32,000 bases of DNA from the NCBI RefSeq assembly GCF_000017945.1, contig NC_009776.1:120001-152000 (forward strand), in the 5' to 3' direction. Shown here piece after piece: positions 431 to 9,314 of this stretch (its first letter is position 1; each line of letters opens with the position of its first letter). A program made the translations under genes and the position numbers. The notes below the pieces were generated by a model, which did no database searches, was not told where the DNA came from, and was given only the letters and a program-made list of their open reading frames with translations. Source of the DNA: Ignicoccus hospitalis KIN4/I. GTDB lineage: Archaea; Thermoproteota; Thermoprotei_A; Sulfolobales; Ignicoccaceae.

Positions 431-450
431 AAGTATTTAGTTTTTAAGGC
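431..450. promoter_or_regulatory. AT-rich, TATA-like divergent promoter region between the Fe-ADH gene and the PP-loop gene
   Basis: AAGTATTTAGTTTTTAAGGC is the only AT-rich patch in a GC-rich spacer. TTTTTAAGG (441-449) lies about 30 nt upstream of ATG 480. Its complement, CTTAAAAAC, lies about 33 nt upstream of GTG 410 on the minus strand. This spacing fits archaeal TATA-to-start distances for short-leader or leaderless mRNAs. Confidence 0.45.
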
Positions 451-479
451 AGAGAGCGCACTTGAGGCGCCGAAGGCTA

Positions 480-1745
480 ATGATGCGTATAGTTGTGAGG
501 AGTAAGAAGGACGCGGACGCAGTAAGGGCGATGTTGAGCCAAGCCCTCCCCTCGTGGAACGCCGAGGTGGTCACGCTAAAGGGGGCTAGGAAGGAAAAGA
601 TATTGGATGTTATAAATGACGTCGTCGATCCGGACGCGTTCAACATAGTGCTGTTGGGAAGGGAGGATTCGGAAGTGATAAGGGAATTAACAGAGACCAC
701 GCCGCCTAACGTAATAGTACACCTCGTGCCCCGGGCCAGGGTTAGGAACGCGAGGCTCTCCCACCTTAGGTGGGAGCTGGAGAGGGCCAAGGCCCAGCCC
801 AGGGGCTGGGTGCGGTGGTCGGGCGAAGTGCCTTACTTGGAGAAGAAGTTCCCCGCGAGGGTCGAGCCGGGCGAGGAACCGTTCCTCGCCTGGGGCCTCT
901 GGTGGAAGACCTTGGGCCTCGGAGAACCATCCGAAAAATCGTTCTTAGTCTTTAAGAGGCAGAAGGGCTTCCACGAGGTCTATTCAGAAGGTAGAACTGT
1001 AGCCATGTTTGAAATGAATGATTTTGCGTACCCTAAGGTTACTAAGCTGGGAGAGGTTAAAGGCTTCGACATAATGAAGTCCGTCGAGATGAGCGAAGGC
1101 GTGTTGGAGGTTTGGGAAAAGGTCTCTTCCAAGGTATTAGAAGGCTGCGAGAGGGCGGTCGTCCCTTGGAGCGGCGGGAAGGACAGTACTGCAGCTCTGT
1201 TGATAGCGAAGAGGGCTTGCGACGAGGTCACTGCGGTCTACGTTGACACGGGCGTCGATATGTACTTAAATAGGAAGTACGTGGAACTCTGGTCCCAGAA
1301 GCTGAATGTAGACTTGATAATTAAAGAAGTTCCCGTGAAGAGTCAGATATTCCAAAGAGGGTTGCCCACCAAAGAGGACAGGTGGTGTACAGCCCTCAAG
1401 TTGAAGGGGTTAGAGGAGGCGATAAGGGAAGTGAAGCCCGACTACATAGTCGTGGGCGACCGGGACGCGGAGTCCCAAGCGCGCTCGGCCAGGTGGGAGG
1501 AGAGGGCTTGGGAGGGCGTGGGCACGGTTAAGGCCCCCTTAAAGCTCTGGAGCGCTATGATGGTCCAGCTTTACCTATTCAAGAATAAGGTCTTTCCCAA
1601 CCCGCTCTACGCCTCCGGCTTCTACCGGTTGGGCTGTTACGTATGCCCCTTCTTCCGGGCCTACGAGAGGGAGCTCGTGAGGAGGGTCCCTCCGGCCAAG
1701 CTGGGCACCGACGAGGAGTTGCTGAAGAAGTTCTTAGAAGGCTGA
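480..1745 (+). CDS. PP-loop ATP pyrophosphatase of the PAPS-reductase / DndC-like family with an uncharacterised ~215-aa N-terminal domain
   Basis: An SGGKDS PP-loop lies at 1170-1187 (VVPWSGGKDSTAALL), followed by VYVDTGVD. The C-terminal NPLYASGFYRLGCYVCP is as in the PAPS reductase family. The ORF opens at TTG 462, but ATG 480/483 fits the upstream TATA-like box better. Confidence 0.8.
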   Translation: MMRIVVRSKKDADAVRAMLSQALPSWNAEVVTLKGARKEKILDVINDVVDPDAFNIVLLGREDSEVIRELTETTPPNVIVHLVPRARVRNARLSHLRWELERAKAQPRGWVRWSGEVPYLEKKFPARVEPGEEPFLAWGLWWKTLGLGEPSEKSFLVFKRQKGFHEVYSEGRTVAMFEMNDFAYPKVTKLGEVKGFDIMKSVEMSEGVLEVWEKVSSKVLEGCERAVVPWSGGKDSTAALLIAKRACDEVTAVYVDTGVDMYLNRKYVELWSQKLNVDLIIKEVPVKSQIFQRGLPTKEDRWCTALKLKGLEEAIREVKPDYIVVGDRDAESQARSARWEERAWEGVGTVKAPLKLWSAMMVQLYLFKNKVFPNPLYASGFYRLGCYVCPFFRAYERELVRRVPPAKLGTDEELLKKFLEG

Positions 1746-1775
1746 GGGCTCGAACGTCAGCTTAGGTAAGGCGTT

Positions 1776-2573
1776 ATGATGTGCCGGTCAAAAGAGAACT
1801 TCTTTTTAGAATTTGAAAGGTTAATGGTCGAGAGCGCTAAGGACGAGGTAACTGCGGATTCTACAGTGGTAATGGGGATACTCGCCGAGGCCTCGAGGAA
1901 CTTGCTCGCCACCCCTTGCACCCCTAGGACTTCCGGCTTTTGGAGCAAGCTGACGGAGTTCGTCAAGAAGGCCAGAGAAACCAACGACTATTACCTCAAG
2001 AAGGTTTACGCGGAAAAGATCAGGGACGGCGTCCTAGCCTTGGTGAGCTCGGAAAAGGAGTGGAACGCCAAGGGGAACGCAGTGTTGCTGTTATCCGCAG
2101 TCATAAGCGTGCTCGCCAAGCCGTTAACTCCCATTAGCTACGTCCCTTGGGCTAGCTTACTCGTGTACCAGCTCTCGCCCGTCGCCGCCCTCCTCTTGCT
2201 CGCGTCCTCCGGTCTGGCGGCGTTGGCTTTGAAGCCTACCTTGGGATTGTTGTTCTTGATATCTGCTGTTGGGGGATACCTCGAGAGGAAGGTAGAACTA
2301 GACTTGAGCGTCCCGAAGGTCGCGAGGAGGGTCTCTCGAGAGGAGGTGGAGCGCTTGTTCGTCCAGTACTACGGCGAGAGGCTGGGACGCGAGCTCTTCC
2401 GCTTCGAGCTGTACCAGCTGATACTTTCTGGAAGGACCGTGGAGGAGGCCCTTTCCGAGCTCTGGGAGAGGCTCACCAACACACAAATATCCTCAAGGGG
2501 TTACGGAAGGTTAGGAGGAGAGCGTGTCAGCGCCGGGAGGAGGGAAGACCAAGGAGCTGAAAATAATAACTAG
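1776..2573 (+). CDS. Hypothetical membrane protein: ~100-aa N-terminal soluble domain, about 3 TM helices, ~95-aa C-terminal soluble domain containing RLGG
   Basis: The ATG ORF has hydrophobic segments AVLLLSAVISVLA, WASLLVYQLSPVAALLLLASSGLAALAL and TLGLLFLISAVGGYL. The C-terminal part ends ...SSRGYGRLGG-ERVSAGRREDQGAENNN. The gene starts 30 nt after the preceding gene on the same strand. Confidence 0.6.
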   Translation: MMCRSKENFFLEFERLMVESAKDEVTADSTVVMGILAEASRNLLATPCTPRTSGFWSKLTEFVKKARETNDYYLKKVYAEKIRDGVLALVSSEKEWNAKGNAVLLLSAVISVLAKPLTPISYVPWASLLVYQLSPVAALLLLASSGLAALALKPTLGLLFLISAVGGYLERKVELDLSVPKVARRVSREEVERLFVQYYGERLGRELFRFELYQLILSGRTVEEALSELWERLTNTQISSRGYGRLGGERVSAGRREDQGAENNN

Positions 2574-2613
2574 GCAAGTACTCACCGTAGATGACGTTAA
2601 GAAAAACAAGAAC

Positions 2614-2970
2614 ATGAAGATAATATTACACATAGTTAAACACTTGGGCGAAGTCTCGGAGAAGGGGCTAACGAGGCTCCTCTACGAGATGAAGGAGAAG
2701 GGCCTTGACTTGGGTTACCAGTTCGTAAAGATAGGAAAAGTCATAGGGAGCAAGGACCTTCACCAAGACATAATGGACTTGCTCTACGTAGGCCTCCTCG
2801 AGAGGAACCCGGCCAAGAACAAGCTGAGGCTCACCCGCGACGGCGAGGAGTTCTTGGAGAAGAACGGGCTTCCCGAAGAAGAGATCAAGCCTATACTGTC
2901 GCTGGTGGACCAGCTGAAGCCCGTGATAGAGCCAATAGAGGCCGAAGTTGAGATGAGGAGGAGGCCGTAA
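2614..2970 (+). CDS. Small winged-helix (wHTH)-like protein, function unknown
   Basis: MKIILHIVKHLGEVSEKGLTRLLYEMKEKGL...LLYVGLLERNPAKNKLRLTRDGEEFLEK matches the helix-turn-helix plus wing pattern of MarR/PadR-type wHTH domains. The ORF track opens at GTG 2524, overlapping the previous gene. ATG 2614 lies after that gene's stop and is preferred, but the start is uncertain. Confidence 0.5.
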   Translation: MKIILHIVKHLGEVSEKGLTRLLYEMKEKGLDLGYQFVKIGKVIGSKDLHQDIMDLLYVGLLERNPAKNKLRLTRDGEEFLEKNGLPEEEIKPILSLVDQLKPVIEPIEAEVEMRRRP

Positions 2971-2972
2971 GG

Positions 2973-3701
2973 TTGAGCGCCCAGCCCGGCGAAATCCACA
3001 TAACGATATTGATGAAGCCCGAGCTCTCCGAGTACCACGTCACTGCGAACTACGGCGACACCCCGGACGAGGTCAGGAACAAGCTGGCGGAGAAGTTGGG
3101 CATAAGCCCCTCGAGGATAAGGCTTTTCATAAAGAGGCCGGACGGGGCGGAGTACGAGATAACCCACTCCTCCGAGAGCGTGGGCCAAATAGTGAGCGTC
3201 CACGGGAACGTGTGGTACGCTTCGATAGAGGAGCCTTACGGCTCCTTGATAGATGCCATCGAGGCCTTCAGAGAACACTACTTGAGTTCGGGAGAGCTAC
3301 AAAAGAAGTACTCCCCATTGGCCAACGACCCGGGCTTGGGGATCTGGACGGAAAAGTCTTGCAAGAGGAAGGAGTATTGCAGCCCCTCCCGCCCCTACAG
3401 AGTCTTCGTTTTTCCCAGCGTAGGCTACCCCGTCACTCAACCCTTGATATTCGTCTCCCCTAAGGTCCTCCACAAGTGTTGTTTTTACAACTTGAAGTCG
3501 CAGTTCTTCGATATAAAGGCCAAGGAGCTTCCGGAGCTCGCGCCCGCCTTCGAGGAGGCCTCCAAGTTGGTAAACGTTAACATGTGTGTTATGCACATAG
3601 AATCTTGGGATTACTTAAGAAAGGTCGAGAGGAACCCCCTAGAGGTGCTGGACCGTGCCCTATGCACGGACGTTGGACTCTGCGACGGTACCGGTGCATA
3701 A
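2973..3701 (+). CDS. Fusion protein: N-terminal ubiquitin-like beta-grasp domain (aa ~7-87) plus C-terminal E2/UBC-like domain (aa ~88-242)
   Basis: The TTG start lies 2 nt after the upstream stop. In the N-terminal domain, GDTPDEVRNKLAEKLGISPSRIRLF parallels ubiquitin [26 protein letters not shown], flanked by strand-like IHITILM, EYHVTAN and NVWYASIEE. In the C-terminal domain, RVFVFPSVGYPVTQPLIFVSPKVLH (3399-3473) parallels the UBC core [27 protein letters not shown]. Candidate catalytic Cys residues are C169/C170 and C205 (NMCVMHIESW, compare ICLDILxxxW). Confidence 0.6.
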   Translation: MSAQPGEIHITILMKPELSEYHVTANYGDTPDEVRNKLAEKLGISPSRIRLFIKRPDGAEYEITHSSESVGQIVSVHGNVWYASIEEPYGSLIDAIEAFREHYLSSGELQKKYSPLANDPGLGIWTEKSCKRKEYCSPSRPYRVFVFPSVGYPVTQPLIFVSPKVLHKCCFYNLKSQFFDIKAKELPELAPAFEEASKLVNVNMCVMHIESWDYLRKVERNPLEVLDRALCTDVGLCDGTGA

Positions 3702-4473
3702 CGCCGTAATAGACCCGGCAGTCTTCGTGCCCTTGGCCGAGGTAGGCATTAAGAACAAGTGCTATGAGCTTACCGTCGACGCCTCCGAAGACGTGGTGTC
3801 GTTCAGCGGGAGCTTGGACGACACGACCATAACTATTAACAGCGTCAGATACATGAAGGCCGTGGAAAAGGGGCCGACGCACGTAAGGACGTACGACTTC
3901 TTGCCGGACGACGTGGTGGTTGCCCACTACCACTGCGGCATCCCTCCTGAGCCCTCCGCAATCGACGTAGAAACCATGAAACTCGCCTTGAGGGCTCAAC
4001 TAATGGCTACGCTGCCGGGGAGGCCGAGGGTCTTCGGCATAATCTCCCCTACGGTGGCGGGGTCCTCCTTCTGCTTGTCATTAAGCCTCTACGAGCCTGT
4101 GCCCAAGGCTACTATAGCTTTCAAGACGGAGCGCTTGAGGCTGGGCGACTTAGACTTCCTCGAGGGCATTAGGAAGGGCTTCGTCCGCTTGGAGGAGGGG
4201 GACTCCGAGTATTATTTAACCGACCTTTGTGAGGGGCTCGAGCGCGGCTGCTACCCTTTTCGCTACGGAAGCGTGCCGGAAATAGTATTGGAGGACTTCA
4301 TATTCATCCTTTCATATAGTATAAATACCAAGAAGAAGAAATTTCCTTACGCAAAGGTGTCGCCCTCTAAGGCGGTAGTATACGAGGTGGAAGTGGCTAA
4401 TTTTGACGCGAAGGACGCGGTCATACGGGGACTCGTTTGGCGGCTCCGAGGGGCTTCTACGAGAGGACGTTGA
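3655..4473 (+). CDS. JAMM/MPN+ (JAB) metalloprotease-like protein with ~140-aa uncharacterised C-terminal extension
   Basis: An exact JAMM zinc motif H-x-H-x7-S-x2-D is present: VVVAHYHCGIPPEPSAIDVETM, nt 3925-3966. An upstream Glu candidate is in NKCYELTVD. Possible starts are GTG 3655 (47-nt overlap with the upstream gene) or GTG 3694 (8-nt overlap). Confidence 0.75.
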   Translation: MPYARTLDSATVPVHNAVIDPAVFVPLAEVGIKNKCYELTVDASEDVVSFSGSLDDTTITINSVRYMKAVEKGPTHVRTYDFLPDDVVVAHYHCGIPPEPSAIDVETMKLALRAQLMATLPGRPRVFGIISPTVAGSSFCLSLSLYEPVPKATIAFKTERLRLGDLDFLEGIRKGFVRLEEGDSEYYLTDLCEGLERGCYPFRYGSVPEIVLEDFIFILSYSINTKKKKFPYAKVSPSKAVVYEVEVANFDAKDAVIRGLVWRLRGASTRGR

Positions 4474-5228
4474 GGTACTTGCGGGAGGTCGCCGACCCCG
4501 AGGCGCTGAAGGACAAGGTCGTCCTAGTGGGGGGCGTCGGCACCATAGGTTCCAGGCTCGTCAGGAACTTAGCTAGGTTCAACTTCAAAAAGATTATCAT
4601 TATCGACATAGACTACGTCGGCCCGGAGAACGTGGGTTACCAGTGCTATCACACGGAAGAGATAGGGGCGCCTAAGGTCGAAGCTCTTAGCAAGAGGTTC
4701 CGGAGGTACCACCCTTGGACGGAGGTTCAAGGAGTATACTTGGAGGTCTTCACTCCCTCCGGTTTGAGCTCCCTTAGCGAGCTGAAGAAGTTTGCGGAGC
4801 TAGTGAGGGAGAGCGACGTCGTGGTGACGGCTTTCGACACCTTGCCCCCTCGGGCTACCGCACTGTTGTTGGCAGTTAAGTACGGAAAGAAGTACGTTGA
4901 CGTAGGCCTCGGGAGCACCAGGGGGTACGTGAAGTTCTTGAAAGACGGTTACTGCCCGATATGCTCGAAGGTTTGGGAAGAGAAGGTTACTTACTACACC
5001 AACCCCAACTTGGCCGAGGTGGTGGCGGCGTTGGGGGCACAAGCGGCCTTGCGGGCGGCTTTAGGTATGGACTGGCCGAGCGAGGTACACGTCAACCTAG
5101 AAGAGCCCTTGAAAGCTTACATGGCCAGTGACGTCAAGAACGACGGGTGCCCGCTCTGTTCAGAAGAGGTAAGGGCGTTAGCCATAGAAGAGGTTCCTAA
5201 CTACCTAATAAAAAACGTGTATCAATGA
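4437..5228 (+). CDS. E1-like adenylyltransferase of the ThiF/MoeB/UbaA family (263 aa, minimal form)
   Basis: The Rossmann nucleotide loop is VVLVGGVGTIGS (4530-4553), followed by IIIIDIDYVGPENVGYQ, IGAPKVEAL and DVVVTAFDTLPPR (compare the D-x-x-D-N-x-x-x-R region of ThiF/MoeB). Two CxxC pairs are present: CPIC at 4953-4964 and CPLC at 5148-5159, like the Zn site of MoeB/ThiF. Possible starts are TTG 4437, or TTG 4470 in a TTGA overlap with the JAB stop. Confidence 0.8.
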   Translation: MAAPRGFYERTLRYLREVADPEALKDKVVLVGGVGTIGSRLVRNLARFNFKKIIIIDIDYVGPENVGYQCYHTEEIGAPKVEALSKRFRRYHPWTEVQGVYLEVFTPSGLSSLSELKKFAELVRESDVVVTAFDTLPPRATALLLAVKYGKKYVDVGLGSTRGYVKFLKDGYCPICSKVWEEKVTYYTNPNLAEVVAALGAQAALRAALGMDWPSEVHVNLEEPLKAYMASDVKNDGCPLCSEEVRALAIEEVPNYLIKNVYQ

Positions 5229-5233
5229 CTGCT

Positions 5234-6523
5234 TCACCTAGGAGTTAGGTTCGTGTAGAGCTTCAGCCCTTCGGCCGGGCTCCAGAAGCCCACGTCCTCG
5301 AATACGGGCTTGCCGTCCACCATCTTCACTGTCCAGATGCTGTAACTAGTGCTCAAGGGCTCTTGGTATATCGCGTTCATGCTCTTGTCGCCGCTGAAGC
5401 CCTTGTATATGTAGCTCATCTCTATTATGCCGTGCTCCACCAAGTTCGGGTTGTAGCTGGCTGCCCTGAGGGCGCCCAGCGTCACCAGCCACACTGCGTC
5501 GTACAGGGTGTCGCTGAACACGACCGGAGCCTTGCCGTAGACGCTCTCATAGTACTTGATGAAGTTGCCAGAGGTGTAGGGGGCGGTGCCGAGTACGTGC
5601 TTGGCAGCGAGTACCCTAGCGACCACCGGGTCCTCTATGAGCGCTGGGCCCTTTACGGCCTCAGTGAAGAACCACGGGTACCTCTGTAAGCCTAATTGCA
5701 AGGCTTGCCTTAGTATTACCTTTATCTCGTCGAAGGCGAGCCACACTATCGCTTGCGGCTTGTAGTTGTTTATGGTCCTAAGCTCGGCAAGGTAGCTCCT
5801 CGCGTTGGGGTCGTAAGGTATCAGGTAGGCCTTCCCTCCTTCGGCCTCAAAGGCCTGCTTGAAGGCCATGGCGAAGCCTTTGCCGTAGTCGTCGTTCCTG
5901 TAGAAGAACACTACCTTATTGTAGCCGAAGCTCTTAACGACCTTAGCTAGAGCCTTCGCTTGGAACAAGTCGCTGCTAACGCTGAAGAAGACGTAGCTGT
6001 AGCCCAGCTTCGCTATGTAGTCACGGTTGTTGAACCTCACTAGCGGGGAGGTGCTGGAGTGGCTCATCAGTATTACCTTGAGCTCGCCGTTGATGACGTC
6101 TTGGAGGGTACCGACGGCCGCGCTGGTGGCGGGGCCTACGACCAAACGGACGCCGTCGACGTTGACCAGCTTCCTAACCTTCTCTAAAGCCACTTGCGGG
6201 TTAGTCTGGGTGTCCTCCACTACCCACGTCACCTTGAACGGCAGCCCCAATTCCTTGAAACAGTAGTTCAAGTCCCTCGCGGCCAGCTCTACGGCGTAGC
6301 GCTCGTCGGCGAAGCTGGCGAGGGCACCGCTCATGGGTATTAGGGCACCTATCTTTATGGTGGTACCTCCTAAGCCTTCCTTCACCTTCTCTAAACCGCC
6401 GGCTCTCTCAACAGCTATCTTGAGGTAGTCGCACTTGGGCCCGCCGTAAGCTTCTTGAGGCGCGACAGCGAGGACTGCGGACGTCATTACGGCTAGTAAG
6501 AGCAGAGGAAGAAACTTCTTCAT
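5234..6523 (-). CDS. Extracellular solute-binding protein, type-1 periplasmic binding fold (Leu/Ile/Val-binding LivJ-like family), with N-terminal signal/anchor
   Basis: An N-terminal hydrophobic segment (MKKFLPLLLLAVMTSAVLAVA) is followed by IKIGALIPMSGALASF...EDTQTNPQVALEKVRKLVNVDGVRLVVGPATSAAV, the typical LivJ-family layout. The gene is convergent with the E1-like gene, with 5 nt between the stops. Confidence 0.8.
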   Translation of the reverse strand: MKKFLPLLLLAVMTSAVLAVAPQEAYGGPKCDYLKIAVERAGGLEKVKEGLGGTTIKIGALIPMSGALASFADERYAVELAARDLNYCFKELGLPFKVTWVVEDTQTNPQVALEKVRKLVNVDGVRLVVGPATSAAVGTLQDVINGELKVILMSHSSTSPLVRFNNRDYIAKLGYSYVFFSVSSDLFQAKALAKVVKSFGYNKVVFFYRNDDYGKGFAMAFKQAFEAEGGKAYLIPYDPNARSYLAELRTINNYKPQAIVWLAFDEIKVILRQALQLGLQRYPWFFTEAVKGPALIEDPVVARVLAAKHVLGTAPYTSGNFIKYYESVYGKAPVVFSDTLYDAVWLVTLGALRAASYNPNLVEHGIIEMSYIYKGFSGDKSMNAIYQEPLSTSYSIWTVKMVDGKPVFEDVGFWSPAEGLKLYTNLTPR

Positions 6524-6558
6524 GGCACAGTCTCCAAAGCCTTGGGAGTAAACCTCGG

Positions 6559-6574
6559 TTTAAAAATTTTAATT
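6559..6574 (-). promoter_or_regulatory. TATA-like box for the downstream binding-protein gene (5234-6523)
   Basis: The minus strand reads AAAATTAAAATTTTTAAA immediately after the stop of the upstream paralog. TTTTTAAA lies about 39 nt upstream of ATG 6523. Confidence 0.4.
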
Positions 6575-7870
6575 TTACTTGGGCCTGATCGGCGTAAAGA
6601 GTTCTATTCCTTTCTCGGGGTCCCAGAACCCTACTTTGACCACGGTCGGCTTGCCGTTCTCTATCTTGATAGTCCAGTAGTGGTATGAGGACCTCATAAC
6701 TTCTTGAGTCAGCGGGTTGAAGGTCTTGGGTCCGGTATAGCCCTTGAAGTACGCTCCGACCTCGATCAGCGCCTCCCTTATGGCGTCGGCGTCGTACTTC
6801 TTCGCCTTCAATACGCTGAGGGCAGACAGCCACAAGGTGTCATATATGTAGTCCGCGTACAACATTGGAGGTATGCCGAACCTCTTTTCGTACAGCTTTG
6901 CGAAGACGTCGCTGCCGCCGGGCCCGGTGCCCATGCCGTTCTTGAGGGCCACTACTTTGGCTAGGTACGGGTCGTTCAGGAGCACGCCCCTACAAGTCTC
7001 GCTGAACAACCACGGGTACCTCTGCAAACCTAGTTGCATCGCTTGCCTCAATATAACCTTCAGCTCGTCGAATGAGATGAAGAGTATCGCGTCGGGGTTG
7101 CTGTTGGCAACTACTCTCAGCTCCGCGTCGAAGGTCCTCGCGTTAGGGTCGTAGGGGACCAGTACGCATTCGCCGCCGTTTTGAGAGAAGTAATACTTGA
7201 AGGCGTTAGCCAGCCCAACGCCGTAGTCGTCTTGGCGGAACACGATAGTGACCTTCTTGTAGCCGAGCTTGGTGGCCAGTTCGGCTAACGCCTTCCCTTG
7301 GAAGTAGTCGTTGGTGATGGCCCAGAATATGTAGGACTTCCCGGTCTTGGAGATGTACTCCTTGTAGTTGGCGATCCTTAAGTTGGGCGCGGTGCTGGTA
7401 GCGGACATCACCACTACGTGTAGCTCCGAGTTGACCGGATACATCAACGACCCCATAGGTCTGCTCGTGATCCTGCCCGCAATTATTTGTACTCCTTGGA
7501 GAGCGAGCTTCCTAACGACTTCTACAGCGACTTGGGGGTCTGTGCGGGTGTCTTCCATTATGAACTTGAACCTCCACGGAAGGCCGAGCTTCTCCATACA
7601 GCCGTTGATGTCGTCGGAGGCCATCTTAATTGCATTGTAGTTAGAGACGGCGAACGAACCCAAGGCCCCGCTGAGCGGGGCGGGTGCGCCTATCGGTATC
7701 TCCTTCGGGAGGCGTATGTTGTCTACGCCGCCGGCCCATTCTATCACCTTCTTTATGCTCTCGCAGTTGGGCCCCAGTTGGTAGGGCTTGGTCAACAGGT
7801 CCATCTCTTCGGTCGAAGCTGCGATTACAAAGGCCGTCATTAATAGCGTTAACAGTAAACCCGTCCTCAC
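6575..7870 (-). CDS. Extracellular solute-binding protein, LivJ-like family; paralog of 5234-6523
   Basis: The GTG start is followed by a signal-like N-terminus, MRTGLLLTLLMTAFVIAAS. IPIGAPAPLSGALGSF...EDTRTDPQVAVEVVRKLALQGVQIIAG aligns along its whole length with the neighbouring gene product. Confidence 0.8.
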   Translation of the reverse strand: MRTGLLLTLLMTAFVIAASTEEMDLLTKPYQLGPNCESIKKVIEWAGGVDNIRLPKEIPIGAPAPLSGALGSFAVSNYNAIKMASDDINGCMEKLGLPWRFKFIMEDTRTDPQVAVEVVRKLALQGVQIIAGRITSRPMGSLMYPVNSELHVVVMSATSTAPNLRIANYKEYISKTGKSYIFWAITNDYFQGKALAELATKLGYKKVTIVFRQDDYGVGLANAFKYYFSQNGGECVLVPYDPNARTFDAELRVVANSNPDAILFISFDELKVILRQAMQLGLQRYPWLFSETCRGVLLNDPYLAKVVALKNGMGTGPGGSDVFAKLYEKRFGIPPMLYADYIYDTLWLSALSVLKAKKYDADAIREALIEVGAYFKGYTGPKTFNPLTQEVMRSSYHYWTIKIENGKPTVVKVGFWDPEKGIELFTPIRPK

Positions 7871-8021
7871 TGGTTACACCCTCACCCTTTCGCTGCACAG
7901 ACCGGGTTTTTGAGTATATGCACCCCTAACATACATAGCATTGTACATAACTGTATATGATCAATATATACGACTTCGCAAGCGCTTCGGAGCTGAGGTT
8001 GGCTGGGCGCTCGGCAGCTGG

Positions 8022-8030
8022 TTTATATAT
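8022..8030 (+). promoter_or_regulatory. Consensus-like archaeal TATA box TTTATATAT
   Basis: TTTATATA is a near-perfect archaeal TATA element, embedded in otherwise GC-rich sequence. It lies 8 nt upstream of a perfect 16-bp palindrome and about 130 nt upstream of ATG 8158. Confidence 0.4.
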
Positions 8031-8037
8031 GGCGAGC

Positions 8038-8053
8038 GGAGTAGTACTACTCC
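8038..8053. promoter_or_regulatory. Perfect 16-bp palindrome GGAGTAGTACTACTCC: candidate operator, or hairpin at a transcript 5' end
   Basis: The sequence equals its own reverse complement. Its position just downstream of the TATA-like box is where archaeal repressors commonly bind, overlapping the expected transcription start. Confidence 0.35.
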
Positions 8054-8157
8054 ATACCGGGTGCCTTAAGGTGGCGGTCGCTAGCCTCCCCGGGAGCGCG
8101 CAGACTTCCTCTACCGTTCGCTTCGCGCCCGCTCCCCCGAAAAAGAGCGTACTCATT

Positions 8158-8748
8158 ATGGGTACTTTCGAGCCTAAGTACAAGCTCATAAACTCCCTGT
8201 ATGTAGCCCTAACCAAGTTAGAGGAACTCGATATGGTGTCTTCAGCGGGGATGATAGACAACAACGTCTTCTCCGTACCCGGCGACGAAGCTCCATACGC
8301 TAAAATCATGTTTACTATAGGAAAGAAGACTAAGGAGTACTGGTTAGTAGGCGTCCCGTCCGAAATATCCACGAAAATATTGTCCAACCTTAAGGACAGT
8401 ATAAGAGCGTTTAGGGGGAGTCTCCCGAAGGAGACGATTTACGAAATAGTGGACGACCCAGAGGGCTTGGCCAAAATAATGGGGGGCGTTAAGAGAATAG
8501 TCTACGTCTTCGATCCCGAGACCCAAGCCTACGCCTCCATTGAACTGGCTAACATGCTCGCGGCTTTTGAGGGGAGGAAGGCAGAGAAGGTGGCGGTCGT
8601 TAACGTAGGAAAGGGTATGCCGGCCTTCGTTCCGAGCACCTTACAAGCCCTAGAAAGGCTCGGCTTCGTCAAGGACAGCCTCGTGCTGGAGACGCCCACC
8701 TTGAATAGCTTTGAGATGCTCAAGTTGGCCAAGTTCGTCTTTCTTTGA
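8158..8748 (+). CDS. Hypothetical protein (197 aa from ATG 8158; the ORF is open from ATG 7957)
   Basis: From MGTFEPKYKLINSLYVALTKLEELD... onward the composition is Lys/Glu/Val-rich like the other proteins here. The 67 codons upstream (7957-8157) are Ala/Ser/Gly/Leu-rich, and the opposite strand is also open across them. I therefore favour the internal start. I recognise no family. Confidence 0.5.
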   Translation: MGTFEPKYKLINSLYVALTKLEELDMVSSAGMIDNNVFSVPGDEAPYAKIMFTIGKKTKEYWLVGVPSEISTKILSNLKDSIRAFRGSLPKETIYEIVDDPEGLAKIMGGVKRIVYVFDPETQAYASIELANMLAAFEGRKAEKVAVVNVGKGMPAFVPSTLQALERLGFVKDSLVLETPTLNSFEMLKLAKFVFL

Positions 8749-9314
8749 TGGAGACCTCATTCAAAAAGCCCTCAGCCCCTTCCCTCGTGGGAGGGGTTTT
8801 GGTAGCGAAAGGCGAGGCGAAGGTATACTTGGACGGCAACGTGTTGTTGGCGGCCTCCACCCTAGAAGATAAGCTGCACGACGAAACGGTAGAGTTCTTA
8901 GACTTGGTGAAGAAGGCCGACTGGGAGCTAGTTATAGGCACCCCCATACTGCTCGAGCTGGAACAGTTGCTCTACTTGGGCGACATGGGCTGGTTCAGGC
9001 TCCGGCACGCGCTTTCGGCGCTCCCCAAGTACGAGATAAAGATAATCGAGGACGACCATAAGAAGGTGCTGGAGCTGGCGAACGAGTACTTGAACGAGAG
9101 GGTTCTGTCAGAGAAGTACTTCACCAACTTGTTAGTCATAGCGTCGGCTACGCTCGGCGACGTTGACTATTTGGTTTCGTGGGACTCTAGGAGGATGGCT
9201 AACAAGAGCGTGGTTACTGCCGTGAACAGGGTCAACTTGAACAAGAAGCTCAGGGAGATAGAGATAGTCACACCTAAAAGGCTATCCCAGATAATTAAGG
9301 AGGAGGTGTTGTGA
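8748..9314 (+). CDS. PIN-domain-like protein (possible VapC-type nuclease, divergent)
   Basis: KVYLDGNVLLAAS gives the first acidic residue in strand 1 and ILLELEQ a Glu. NLLVIASATLGDVDYLVSWDSR resembles the PIN pattern (D-xx-h-h-A-x-A ... h-h-T-x-D), with Asn in place of the usual third acidic residue. ATG 8748 overlaps the upstream TGA (TGATG). Confidence 0.5.
   Translation: METSFKKPSAPSLVGGVLVAKGEAKVYLDGNVLLAASTLEDKLHDETVEFLDLVKKADWELVIGTPILLELEQLLYLGDMGWFRLRHALSALPKYEIKIIEDDHKKVLELANEYLNERVLSEKYFTNLLVIASATLGDVDYLVSWDSRRMANKSVVTAVNRVNLNKKLREIEIVTPKRLSQIIKEEVL

Follow-up and report, generated by a model that had tools for sequence, protein, structure and literature searches.

A probable four-gene ubiquitin-like conjugation cassette beside a separate PP-loop/membrane protein gene pair in the archaeon Ignicoccus hospitalis

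Introduction

Do six tightly packed, co-directional genes of a hyperthermophilic archaeon form a single system or are they two units that lie side by side? The question is raised by the genes Igni_0133 to Igni_0138 of Ignicoccus hospitalis KIN4/I (locus tags by exact-sequence look-up), which are carried on a chromosome of 1,297,538 bp. They encode, in this order, a PP-loop protein, a membrane protein, a small protein, a fusion of a ubiquitin-like domain (Ubl) to a domain resembling ubiquitin-conjugating enzymes (E2), a JAB protein and a protein resembling ubiquitin-activating enzymes (E1). All positions given here refer to the window, i.e., the whole stretch of 32,000 nucleotides (nt) that was analysed (positions 120,001 to 152,000 of contig NC_009776.1).

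I. hospitalis hosts Nanoarchaeum and possesses an unusual endomembrane system. Archaeal E1/E2 cascades have, to our knowledge, been described only from Caldiarchaeum and the Asgard archaea, and these are eukaryote-like. A first-pass annotation, made from the letters of the window alone, had joined the six genes into one functional unit, either a sulfur relay or a conjugation-based stress or antiviral module, and did not recognise the combination as a described system. On the latter point the literature agrees, as no description was found in non-subscription publications searched for the locus tags, for Ignicoccus with ubiquitin, E2 or JAB, and for Desulfurococcales with E2 or JAMM. Of the proteins encoded by the last four genes three are annotated as "hypothetical", and the E2-like and JAB domains are missed by Pfam.

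The comparisons described below make it probable, though far from certain, that the locus consists of two adjacent modules: a four-gene Ubl conjugation cassette specific to the Ignicoccus clade (2524-5228) and a separate PP-loop/membrane pair (480-2573). As part of the same reading, and with the same confidence, the pair is taken to comprise a PP-loop enzyme of the PAPS reductase family that occurs throughout the Thermoproteota and a clade-specific membrane protein, neither of them a component of the Ubl machinery.

Conservation of the two proposed modules

Six co-directional genes are expected by chance in about 1 of 32 cases, which taken alone is weak evidence for a common unit. The real support for a cluster is an arrangement that is kept in related genomes, and this holds fully for the last four genes only. 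In the seven lineages of the Ignicoccus clade that were compared (L001, L008/L014, L013, L005, L009, L004, and L006) the order small protein, Ubl-E2, JAB, E1 is intact and contiguous without exception. Ignicoccus islandicus has an unbroken PP-loop/membrane pair some 8 kb away from the cassette, the two arrangements of I. islandicus and L009 differing by a single inversion with its breakpoint exactly between the membrane and small-protein genes. In the most divergent relative, GCA_054016895.1 (40-58% identity), the four-gene cassette is found by itself, the PP-loop gene lying on a different contig, where an unrelated 313-residue protein follows it and no homolog of the membrane gene is found beside it.

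The distribution of the two modules beyond the clade was examined as well. A scan of the GTDB species genomes with the PP-loop alignment gave 171 relatives confirmed by tblastn; 80 of these loci were kept and 76 of them are outside the Ignicoccus clade, in metagenome-assembled genomes (MAGs) labelled Desulfurococcales, Pyrodictiaceae, Acidilobaceae, Thermofilaceae, Bathyarchaeota, Methanomethylicota, and others. Within 8 kb on either side of the PP-loop gene, tblastn detected the membrane, small-protein, Ubl-E2 or JAB genes at none of the 76 loci, and the only E1-like match was one ThiF-family gene on the opposite strand (L058). These loci share no conserved PP-loop neighbourhood either, since any one neighbour family is present in 11 of them at most and the downstream gene varies. 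Homologs of Igni_0136 and Igni_0137 recovered by a word-indexed search fall into 13 and 19 clusters, respectively, all from Ignicoccus or Ignicoccus-like MAGs, and an exhaustive profile search of 1.8 billion representatives added only four more distant proteins, with the same Ubl-E2 architecture.

A comparison of gene neighbourhoods across archaea was what the first-pass annotation had proposed for its six-gene unit. The outcome upholds the order of four genes within the clade and speaks against the larger unit: PP-loop and Ubl genes do not co-occur at the 76 loci outside the clade, the membrane gene follows the PP-loop gene in I. islandicus, the cassette is alone in GCA_054016895.1, and the PP-loop protein belongs to a widespread family of housekeeping type. 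This is largely what that annotation had itself said would count against a six-gene system. Where an archaeal genome is compact, genes packed tightly in one direction can look like a bigger "system" than comparative genomics bears out.

Adjacency within the clade has to be read with the neighbouring genes in mind. The Peripla_BP_6 gene directly downstream of the E1 gene keeps this place in six of the seven lineages, and because this convergent gene is necessarily a separate transcription unit, adjacency at this depth is largely inherited synteny. From lineage to lineage the four cassette proteins lose identity in step with the PP-loop protein, a pattern that fits vertical inheritance. No cassette relatives were found on viral contigs, and a metagenome search yielded two further short contigs, both Ignicoccus-like. 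The PP-loop/membrane pair probably lies beside the cassette through shared ancestry, and the two modules may be co-transcribed in I. hospitalis.

Gene layout

The features of the locus are collected in Table 1. The mechanical list of open reading frames (ORFs) agrees with the first-pass annotation on five of the six ORFs and their strand, on the 30-nt spacer between the PP-loop and membrane genes (1745 to 1776), on the 2-nt spacer ahead of Igni_0136 (2970 to 2973) and on the two overlaps that follow, measured as 47 nt at 3655-3701 (Igni_0136/0137) and 37 nt at 4437-4473 (Igni_0137/0138). The annotation is also right in bracketing the cluster by a divergent gene on the left, which encodes an Fe-ADH protein, and a convergent one on the right, the Peripla_BP_6 gene. 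The starts of Igni_0136, Igni_0137, and Igni_0138 are backed by the conserved N-termini of their homologs.

The third gene, previously delimited as 2614-2970, has the strand and stop given but not the start. The first 30 residues of the longer protein (MSxPxGKxKELKIxxRxVxTxDDxKKxK) and a Shine-Dalgarno-like element, GGGGxGAG, located 4-8 nt upstream of its start are kept in all seven lineages, and for this reason the start of Igni_0135 is placed at GTG 2524 rather than ATG 2614. The ORF then overlaps that of Igni_0134 by 50 nt and the spacer of about 40 nt reported between them does not exist.

Table 1. Features of the Igni_0133-Igni_0138 locus (window coordinates).
Feature	Coordinates	Strand	Remarks
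TATA-like box TTTTTAAGG	441..449	+	Read directly and by motif scan; between the divergent Fe-ADH gene and Igni_0133, upstream of the latter
Igni_0133, PP-loop protein	462/480-1745	+	Mechanical ORF list
Igni_0134, membrane protein	1776-2573	+	265 aa; mechanical ORF list
AAATAT element, candidate internal promoter	2485..2490	+	Motif scan; about 35 nt upstream of the Igni_0135 start, within the Igni_0134 ORF
Igni_0135, small protein	2524-2970	+	148 aa; start conserved in 7 lineages
Igni_0136, Ubl/E2 fusion	2973-3701	+	242 residues; mechanical ORF list
Ubiquitin-fold (beta-grasp) domain, predicted modifier	2973..3242	+	Igni_0136 residues 1-90, ending ...EEPYG90
Predicted divergent E2/UBC-fold domain	3243..3701	+	Igni_0136 residues 91-242; FPSxGYPxTxP flap, H167-K-C169-C170 (codons 3471-3482)
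Igni_0137, JAB protein	3655-4473	+	272 aa; mechanical ORF list
E45 of Igni_0137	3787-3789		Codon
JAMM motif H91-x-H93-x7-S101-x2-D104	3925-3966		Igni_0137
Igni_0138, E1-like protein	4437-5228	+	263 aa; mechanical ORF list
GxGxxG loop	~4530-4553		Igni_0138
CxxC pair C173/C176, Zn type	4953-4964		Igni_0138
Y186	4992-4994		Igni_0138
CxxC pair C238/C241, Zn type	5148-5159		Igni_0138
Peripla_BP_6 gene	5234-6523	-	Convergent right flank

The proteins of the cassette

Igni_0136, like Igni_0137, has no significant match in Pfam, NCBIfam or PADLOC. Its AlphaFold2 model, built with 11 homologs, has a mean predicted confidence (pLDDT) of 87 and begins with a beta-grasp domain whose Foldseek matches are Ufm1, NEDD8, ubiquitin variants, and the ubiquitin of Caldiarchaeum (6fno_D), with E-values of ~1e-4 to 1e-5 and target-normalised template modelling (TM) scores of 0.65-0.82; ThiS, MoaD, and Urm1 are absent from the top 50 matches. 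The family profile also matches polyubiquitin proteins at 3e-11. Gly90, which closes the beta-grasp tail as part of an aromatic-Gly motif, is invariant in the Ignicoccus family and in the four distant homologs, and the same is true of the prolines of the flap, Cys169 and Asn203.

As the beta-grasp domain swamped the Foldseek search with the full-length model, residues 88-242 were modelled alone. The resulting fold (pLDDT 90) is a helix, a four-strand meander and further helices, and all of its 50 top matches in the PDB are E2 or UEV proteins, although weakly so (best E 0.045, probability 0.85, TM 0.3-0.46). The sequence FPSVGYPVTQPLIFVSPKVLHKCC mirrors the canonical FPxxYPxxPPxxxFxxxxxHPN...C, and hhalign against four canonical E2s aligned YPxxxP with YPxxPP, H167 with the His of HPN and the two cysteines (CC) with the catalytic Cys (P=0.07). 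The spacing between His and Cys departs from the canonical HPN-x8-Cys. Four further cysteines, C130, C136, C231, and C237 (window 3360-3380 and 3663-3683), are invariant within the Ignicoccus clade only, the distant homologs not conserving them, and could make up a zinc site or disulfides that stabilise the protein in a hyperthermophile.

Igni_0137 is predicted to be a JAMM/MPN+ metalloprotease. E45, G52, H91, H93, S101, and D104 are invariant among 16 homologs, and hhalign against Prok-JAB proteins that are Pfam-positive gives P=0.005. A distant homolog (L093) matches the family hidden Markov model (HMM) at 2.9e-9 and keeps the His, Ser and Asp residues. A profile search of solved structures returned one chance hit (E=1.7). 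In Ignicoccus pacificus (CP006868.1) a single frameshift at the conserved PGRPRVFG codons (L005:9021-9027) splits the ortholog into ORFs of 115 and 140 residues; a CCC run stands where CCCC is expected, which is either a sequencing error or a real pseudogene.

The E1 assignment of Igni_0138 rests on a PF00899 (ThiF) match over residues 17-211 at 3.9e-23 (82 bits, cutoff 28); the top NCBIfam matches are ThiF models as well, all below cutoff. Among solved structures it is closest to ATG7 (1.6e-14), followed by UBA3, SAE2, TcdA, Cap2, and MoeB. The invariant residues comprise G33/G35/G38, D57/D59, R139, D134, and both CxxC pairs (C173/C176 and C238/C241). No cysteine occurs between C176 and P190, the crossover region, in the E1 proteins of the Ignicoccus clade, and the distant operons L093 and L096 share the invariant Y186 and P190. 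An alignment of Tyr186 with a Cys of the L096 protein was considered and is contradicted by MAFFT, L096 having the Tyr plus a Cys downstream. A second, short ThiF-family gene (187-188 aa; L004:13482-14045 and L009:13751-14317) is found in I. islandicus and a related MAG, flanked by rpoB and a DUF505 gene; its product, a distinct E1-like protein, may be the housekeeping sulfur-carrier E1.

Igni_0135 is the most conserved protein of the cassette, with orthologs 59-83% identical over 148 residues in the seven lineages (alignment and tblastn). Its N-terminal 30 residues are Lys-rich, with five invariant lysines, and its ortholog heads the unit in I. islandicus and in L006. Family hints are weak (PADLOC WH_III-A, E=0.003; DUF2250, 0.087 in one member; PDC-M19A), and a profile search of solved structures gave only estrogen-receptor noise. 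The protein is possibly a winged helix, so that the winged helix-turn-helix call of the first-pass annotation is plausible, no more, while its other domain calls (PP-loop, membrane, Ubl, E2-like, JAB, and E1) are right or plausible. Being the most conserved of the four and carrying the invariant lysines, Igni_0135 is a candidate partner of the Ubl machinery, as regulator, adaptor or substrate.

The PP-loop/membrane pair

Igni_0133 (421 aa) matches PF01507 (PAPS_reduct) at 1.1e-26 and is a full-length member of NF006351/PRK08576, archaeal proteins of the PAPS reductase family (536.2 bits, cutoff 290, residues 1-419). The SGGKDS motif of the PP-loop and C303, C386, and C389 are invariant in the family. 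Of the proteins with solved structures, PAPS reductases and CysD are nearest to Igni_0133, rather than TtuA or Ncs6. In agreement with this, scores are low with the TtuA model NF049949 (18.7 bits against a cutoff of 450) and with PF01171, the TtuA/Ncs6 family (14.8 against 27); with 32.6 bits against 154 for the CysH model, the protein is not a bona fide CysH either. The N-terminal ~200 residues (window 480-1080) are strongly conserved in NF006351, with V6, R7, D11, W26, G35, R37, G60, R89, N90, and E99 invariant, and match nothing in Pfam or among solved structures; they constitute an uncharacterised domain of a widespread archaeal enzyme.

The defence-related PP-loop proteins DndC, SspD, and BrxP were also considered as relatives, DndC having been suggested by the first-pass annotation. 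Only the core matches (BrxP positions 117-324 of 779; DndC 4e-4), none of the partner genes DndABDE, SspABC or the BREX core was found around Igni_0133, and the suggestion was dropped.

Igni_0134 has three central hydrophobic segments (residues 102-162) and no significant match in Pfam, NCBIfam or PADLOC. Its homologs (21-45% identity) are restricted to the Ignicoccus clade and are always directly 3' of the PP-loop gene, including in I. islandicus where the Ubl genes are elsewhere. The genes found at this position outside the clade were tried as hidden homologs and rejected (HMM E at least 0.2); in several loci they are stomatin-like.

Comparison with known systems

Among known systems the cassette comes closest to the bacterial Type I Bub (6E.1 / DUF6527) operon, which encodes BubAB (Ubl-E2), BubCD (JAB-E1) and BubE (PMC11601596; Iyer et al. 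2006, row 6e). BubCD's JAB domain cuts the BubAB fusion right after a conserved Gly, and the Bub E1 has no crossover-loop Cys, an invariant Tyr forming an oxyester (PMC11601596). The Ignicoccus cassette resembles this operon in the position of the Ubl, N-terminal to a divergent domain of predicted UBC fold, with a conserved Gly (Gly90) where the two meet, in the order Ubl-E2, JAB, E1 without a ubiquitin ligase (E3), and, as far as the sequence indicates, in an E1 that is a single adenylation domain of MoeB/ThiF size lacking the crossover-loop Cys and having an invariant crossover Tyr (Tyr186). It differs in several respects. JAB and E1, fused in BubCD, are separate genes in different frames in all seven lineages, with the 37-nt overlap in I. 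hospitalis; no DUF6527/PF20137 (BubE) match was found in the six proteins or the flanking ORFs; the E2 keeps an invariant Cys169 within H167-K-C169-C170, whereas in Bub the catalytic residue is a Ser, together with His and Asp; one beta-grasp domain is present, and the additional conserved Igni_0135 heads the unit; and the genes are archaeal, apparently inherited vertically and part of the chromosomal core. The JAB protein was set against Bub through its published description rather than through Bub sequences, and its own likeness to canonical Prok-JAB is marginal (Pfam best E 0.26; hhalign P=0.005).

Other systems are more remote. Bil (BilA Ubl, BilB E2, BilC JAB, BilD E1) has the four activities predicted for the cassette, an E2 that uses Cys, as that of the cassette probably does, and likewise no E3; however, its E1 is a large protein with inactive adenylation, active adenylation and cysteine domains (IAD-AAD-CYS) and Igni_0138 is a 263-residue single domain without catalytic Cys, for which reason the cassette is not considered Bil-like. 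The fusion of Ubl and E2 and the lack of any pointer to a defence context are further differences. The archaeal or thermophilic SAMP/UbaA/HvJAMM1, Sulfolobus Urm1 and Thermus TtuB/TtuC/TtuA systems also combine a beta-grasp modifier, a MoeB/ThiF-type E1 and a JAMM protease, and some are tied to PP-loop tRNA thiolases of the TtuA/Ncs6 type, whereas Igni_0133 is of the PAPS reductase type. They operate without an E2 and their Ubls are of the ThiS/MoaD/Urm1 type with a free or nearly free C-terminal GG; the cassette is set apart from them by its predicted E2 fold and by a modifier that is ubiquitin-like, not ThiS/MoaD-like, and fused to the E2. The operon of Caldiarchaeum subterraneum and the Asgard archaea (Ub, E1, E2, RING E3, Rpn11) is likewise archaeal, with a ubiquitin-fold modifier, E1, E2, and JAMM protease. 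As the cassette has neither a RING E3 nor a large E1 it does not belong to this type; its E1 is minimal, without a Cys domain, its Ubl and E2 are fused, and its E2 is too divergent for the Pfam UQ_con and Prok-E2 models. The cassette is filed as a new archaeal variant of the Ubl-E2/JAB/E1 class.

Proposed pathway and alternative explanations

From the match to the Type I Bub architecture, the conserved Gly and an E1 with a Tyr and no crossover Cys, we infer a pathway of five steps. The JAMM protease Igni_0137 would cut Igni_0136 after Gly90, giving a 90-residue modifier and a separate E2 domain; Igni_0138 would adenylate Gly90 of the modifier, which would then pass to Cys169/170 of the E2, either via Tyr186 (as an oxyester, like that of the Bub E1) or directly; the E2 would join the modifier to lysines of target proteins with no E3; and the JAMM protease could also remove the conjugated modifier. 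A more elaborate version of this cascade, in which the dedicated target is Igni_0135, seen as a Lys-rich small DNA-binding protein, seems improbable to us. In that version an E1 Tyr oxyester would be followed by an E2 Cys thioester, the machinery would within the clade also be coupled to the PP-loop/membrane pair in a dual role like that of Urm1 (sulfur carrier and protein modifier), and the whole would represent an archaeal intermediate between bacterial Bub and eukaryotic ubiquitination.

Several observations weigh against the two-module reading or against a working conjugation cassette. The PP-loop and membrane genes are directly upstream of the cassette, in the six-gene arrangement, in five of the seven lineages, and sulfur assimilation operons are known that combine Ubl, JAB, and E1 with a PAPS reductase (Iyer 2006, Table 1 row 4e). 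The 50-nt overlap of Igni_0134 and Igni_0135 and the lack of an oligo-T run at this junction make co-transcription, and hence some functional coupling with the PP-loop pair, possible. The E2 assignment is of moderate statistical strength (Foldseek E of at least 0.045, TM below 0.5, hhalign P=0.07, no Pfam hit), and no Pfam model recognises Igni_0137 at its gathering score, the best E being 0.26. The frameshift in the I. pacificus JAB gene, if real, would mean that the cassette is dispensable in that species and that processing of the Ubl-E2 fusion has been lost there. Lastly, none of the six locus tags was found in the text of the proteomics supplements of Giannone 2011.

The first of these observations leads to the sulfur relay proposed earlier, in which the six genes would form one pathway: a JAMM-processed Ubl, adenylated and thiocarboxylated by the E1, would deliver sulfur to the PP-loop enzyme (cf. 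TtuB/TtuC/TtuA, Urm1/Uba4/Ncs6, CysO/MoeZ/Mec+), and the Cys-rich "E2" would be a persulfide carrier. Tight spacing behind one clear TATA box, the invariant C303, C386, and C389 of the PP-loop protein, an E1 without crossover Cys (as is possible in sulfur-carrier E1s attacked by external persulfides), the ThiF models that head its NCBIfam matches and the crenarchaeal example among the operons of row 4e (Iyer 2006) all agree with such a relay. However, the PP-loop family is away from Ubl genes at 76 of 76 non-clade loci and separated from them in I. islandicus and GCA_054016895.1, the enzyme is of the PAPS reductase/CysD branch rather than TtuA/Ncs6 or genuine CysH, the Ubl resembles ubiquitin, NEDD8, and Ufm1, the cluster encodes no rhodanese or cysteine desulfurase, and the persistence of the Peripla_BP_6 gene next to a transcription unit that is not its own indicates that adjacency says little. 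The relay is unlikely, although the retained adjacency and the operons known to combine Ubl, JAB, E1, and PAPS reductase leave it some probability.

The other earlier proposal, a defence module against viruses or stress, is right in kind in seeing a conjugation module in four of the genes. It would have viral proteins tagged in the manner of Bil or CBASS, the membrane protein acting as effector and the small protein serving as sensor or repressor. Bacterial Ubl/E2/JAB/E1 operons (Bil, Bub, and type II CBASS) do act or are proposed to act in anti-phage immunity, often with small transcriptional regulators (PMC11601596), Igni_0138 gives partial matches to PADLOC Cap2 E1-E2 models (~1e-13), Igni_0135 has its weak PADLOC hits, and in L006 the cassette is followed by a toxin-antitoxin-like pair. 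Against this, the cassette is present in every Ignicoccus-clade genome examined, syntenic among housekeeping genes and diverging in step with the PP-loop protein, not patchy like an island; the two further metagenome contigs are both Ignicoccus-like and no relatives were found on viral contigs; no complete PADLOC system was matched; and the membrane gene stays with the PP-loop gene and not with the cassette. A vertical, syntenic, core-genome pattern weakens the defence reading, and neither an antiviral role nor a membrane effector is supported; we consider it improbable. It is very unlikely, finally, that the cassette is a relic that does not conjugate, its UBC-like domain an inactive RWD/UEV-type scaffold in an uncleaved fusion and its E1 and JAB proteins serving some other small-molecule or peptide modification. 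The weak E2 similarity, the missing HPN-x8-Cys spacing, the E1 without catalytic Cys and the long-standing prediction that the E2-like proteins of 6E operons are inactive (Iyer 2006) would be in line with this; yet Gly90, Cys169, the catalytic JAMM residues, and the Arg, Asp, and Lys of the E1 are invariant over 40-80% sequence divergence, and the supposedly inactive 6E/Bub proteins turned out to be active (PMC11601596). The two-module reading, with a conjugation cassette of four genes, is the one we favour.

Promoters and transcripts

The TATA-like box noted at 441-449 by the first-pass annotation was seen again by direct reading and by a motif scan, which found TTTTTAAGG at 441 to be the sole strong TATA-like box on the + strand between 400 and 5400. 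In the same interval no oligo-T runs occur at gene junctions; T5 runs are present only within coding sequence, at 1803, 3409, and 3482. The lone strong TATA box and the lack of junction oligo-T make a single transcript of all six genes plausible in I. hospitalis. The run at 1803-1807 is 28 nt into the Igni_0134 ORF and 58 nt past the Igni_0133 stop and could be a partial archaeal terminator of the PP-loop transcript.

Igni_0135 may have a promoter of its own. The AAATAT element resembles an ACAAATA motif that precedes the I. islandicus ortholog, where this gene heads its unit, and an internal promoter is therefore possible; together with GGGGxGAG, the element would provide a possible promoter and ribosome-binding site for Igni_0135.

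Distant relatives and neighbouring genes

Distant Ubl-E2 homologs were found on metagenomic contigs of low GC content (35-42%), at L093:3271-8838, L096:281-3414 and L092:413-1771. In L093 and L096 the order is Ubl-E2, long JAB, E1, and short Prok-JAB; the short contig L092 has Ubl-E2 and then a Prok-JAB gene, after which it ends. These operons point to a wider, undescribed operon family. The L093 operon runs on into a gene for a HerA-like DUF87 ATPase, and near that of L096, on the opposite strand, is a gene for a 245-residue HEAT-repeat protein with a C-terminal ubiquitin (PF00240) domain.

Downstream of the cassette, window positions 5234-7870 (- strand) encode two tandem paralogous Peripla_BP_6/ANF_receptor substrate-binding proteins of 429 and 431 residues, convergent to the E1 gene. 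Beyond them two overlapping + strand ORFs (7957-9314; 263 and 189 aa), the second with a weak PIN_3 match (E=0.0027), may be a toxin-antitoxin-like pair. The pair that follows the cassette in L006 is of the PIN type.

Significance

If the two-module reading is true, Ubl conjugation with an E2, of the bacterial Bub type and not the eukaryotic one, would be present in the core genome of a cultured hyperthermophile. Since the cassette is small (four genes, ~2.7 kb) and thermostable, it should be suited to biochemical and structural work, through which the processing of a Ubl-E2 pre-protein, a possible handover from an E1 Tyr oxyester to an E2 Cys and the choice of targets without an E3 could be approached.

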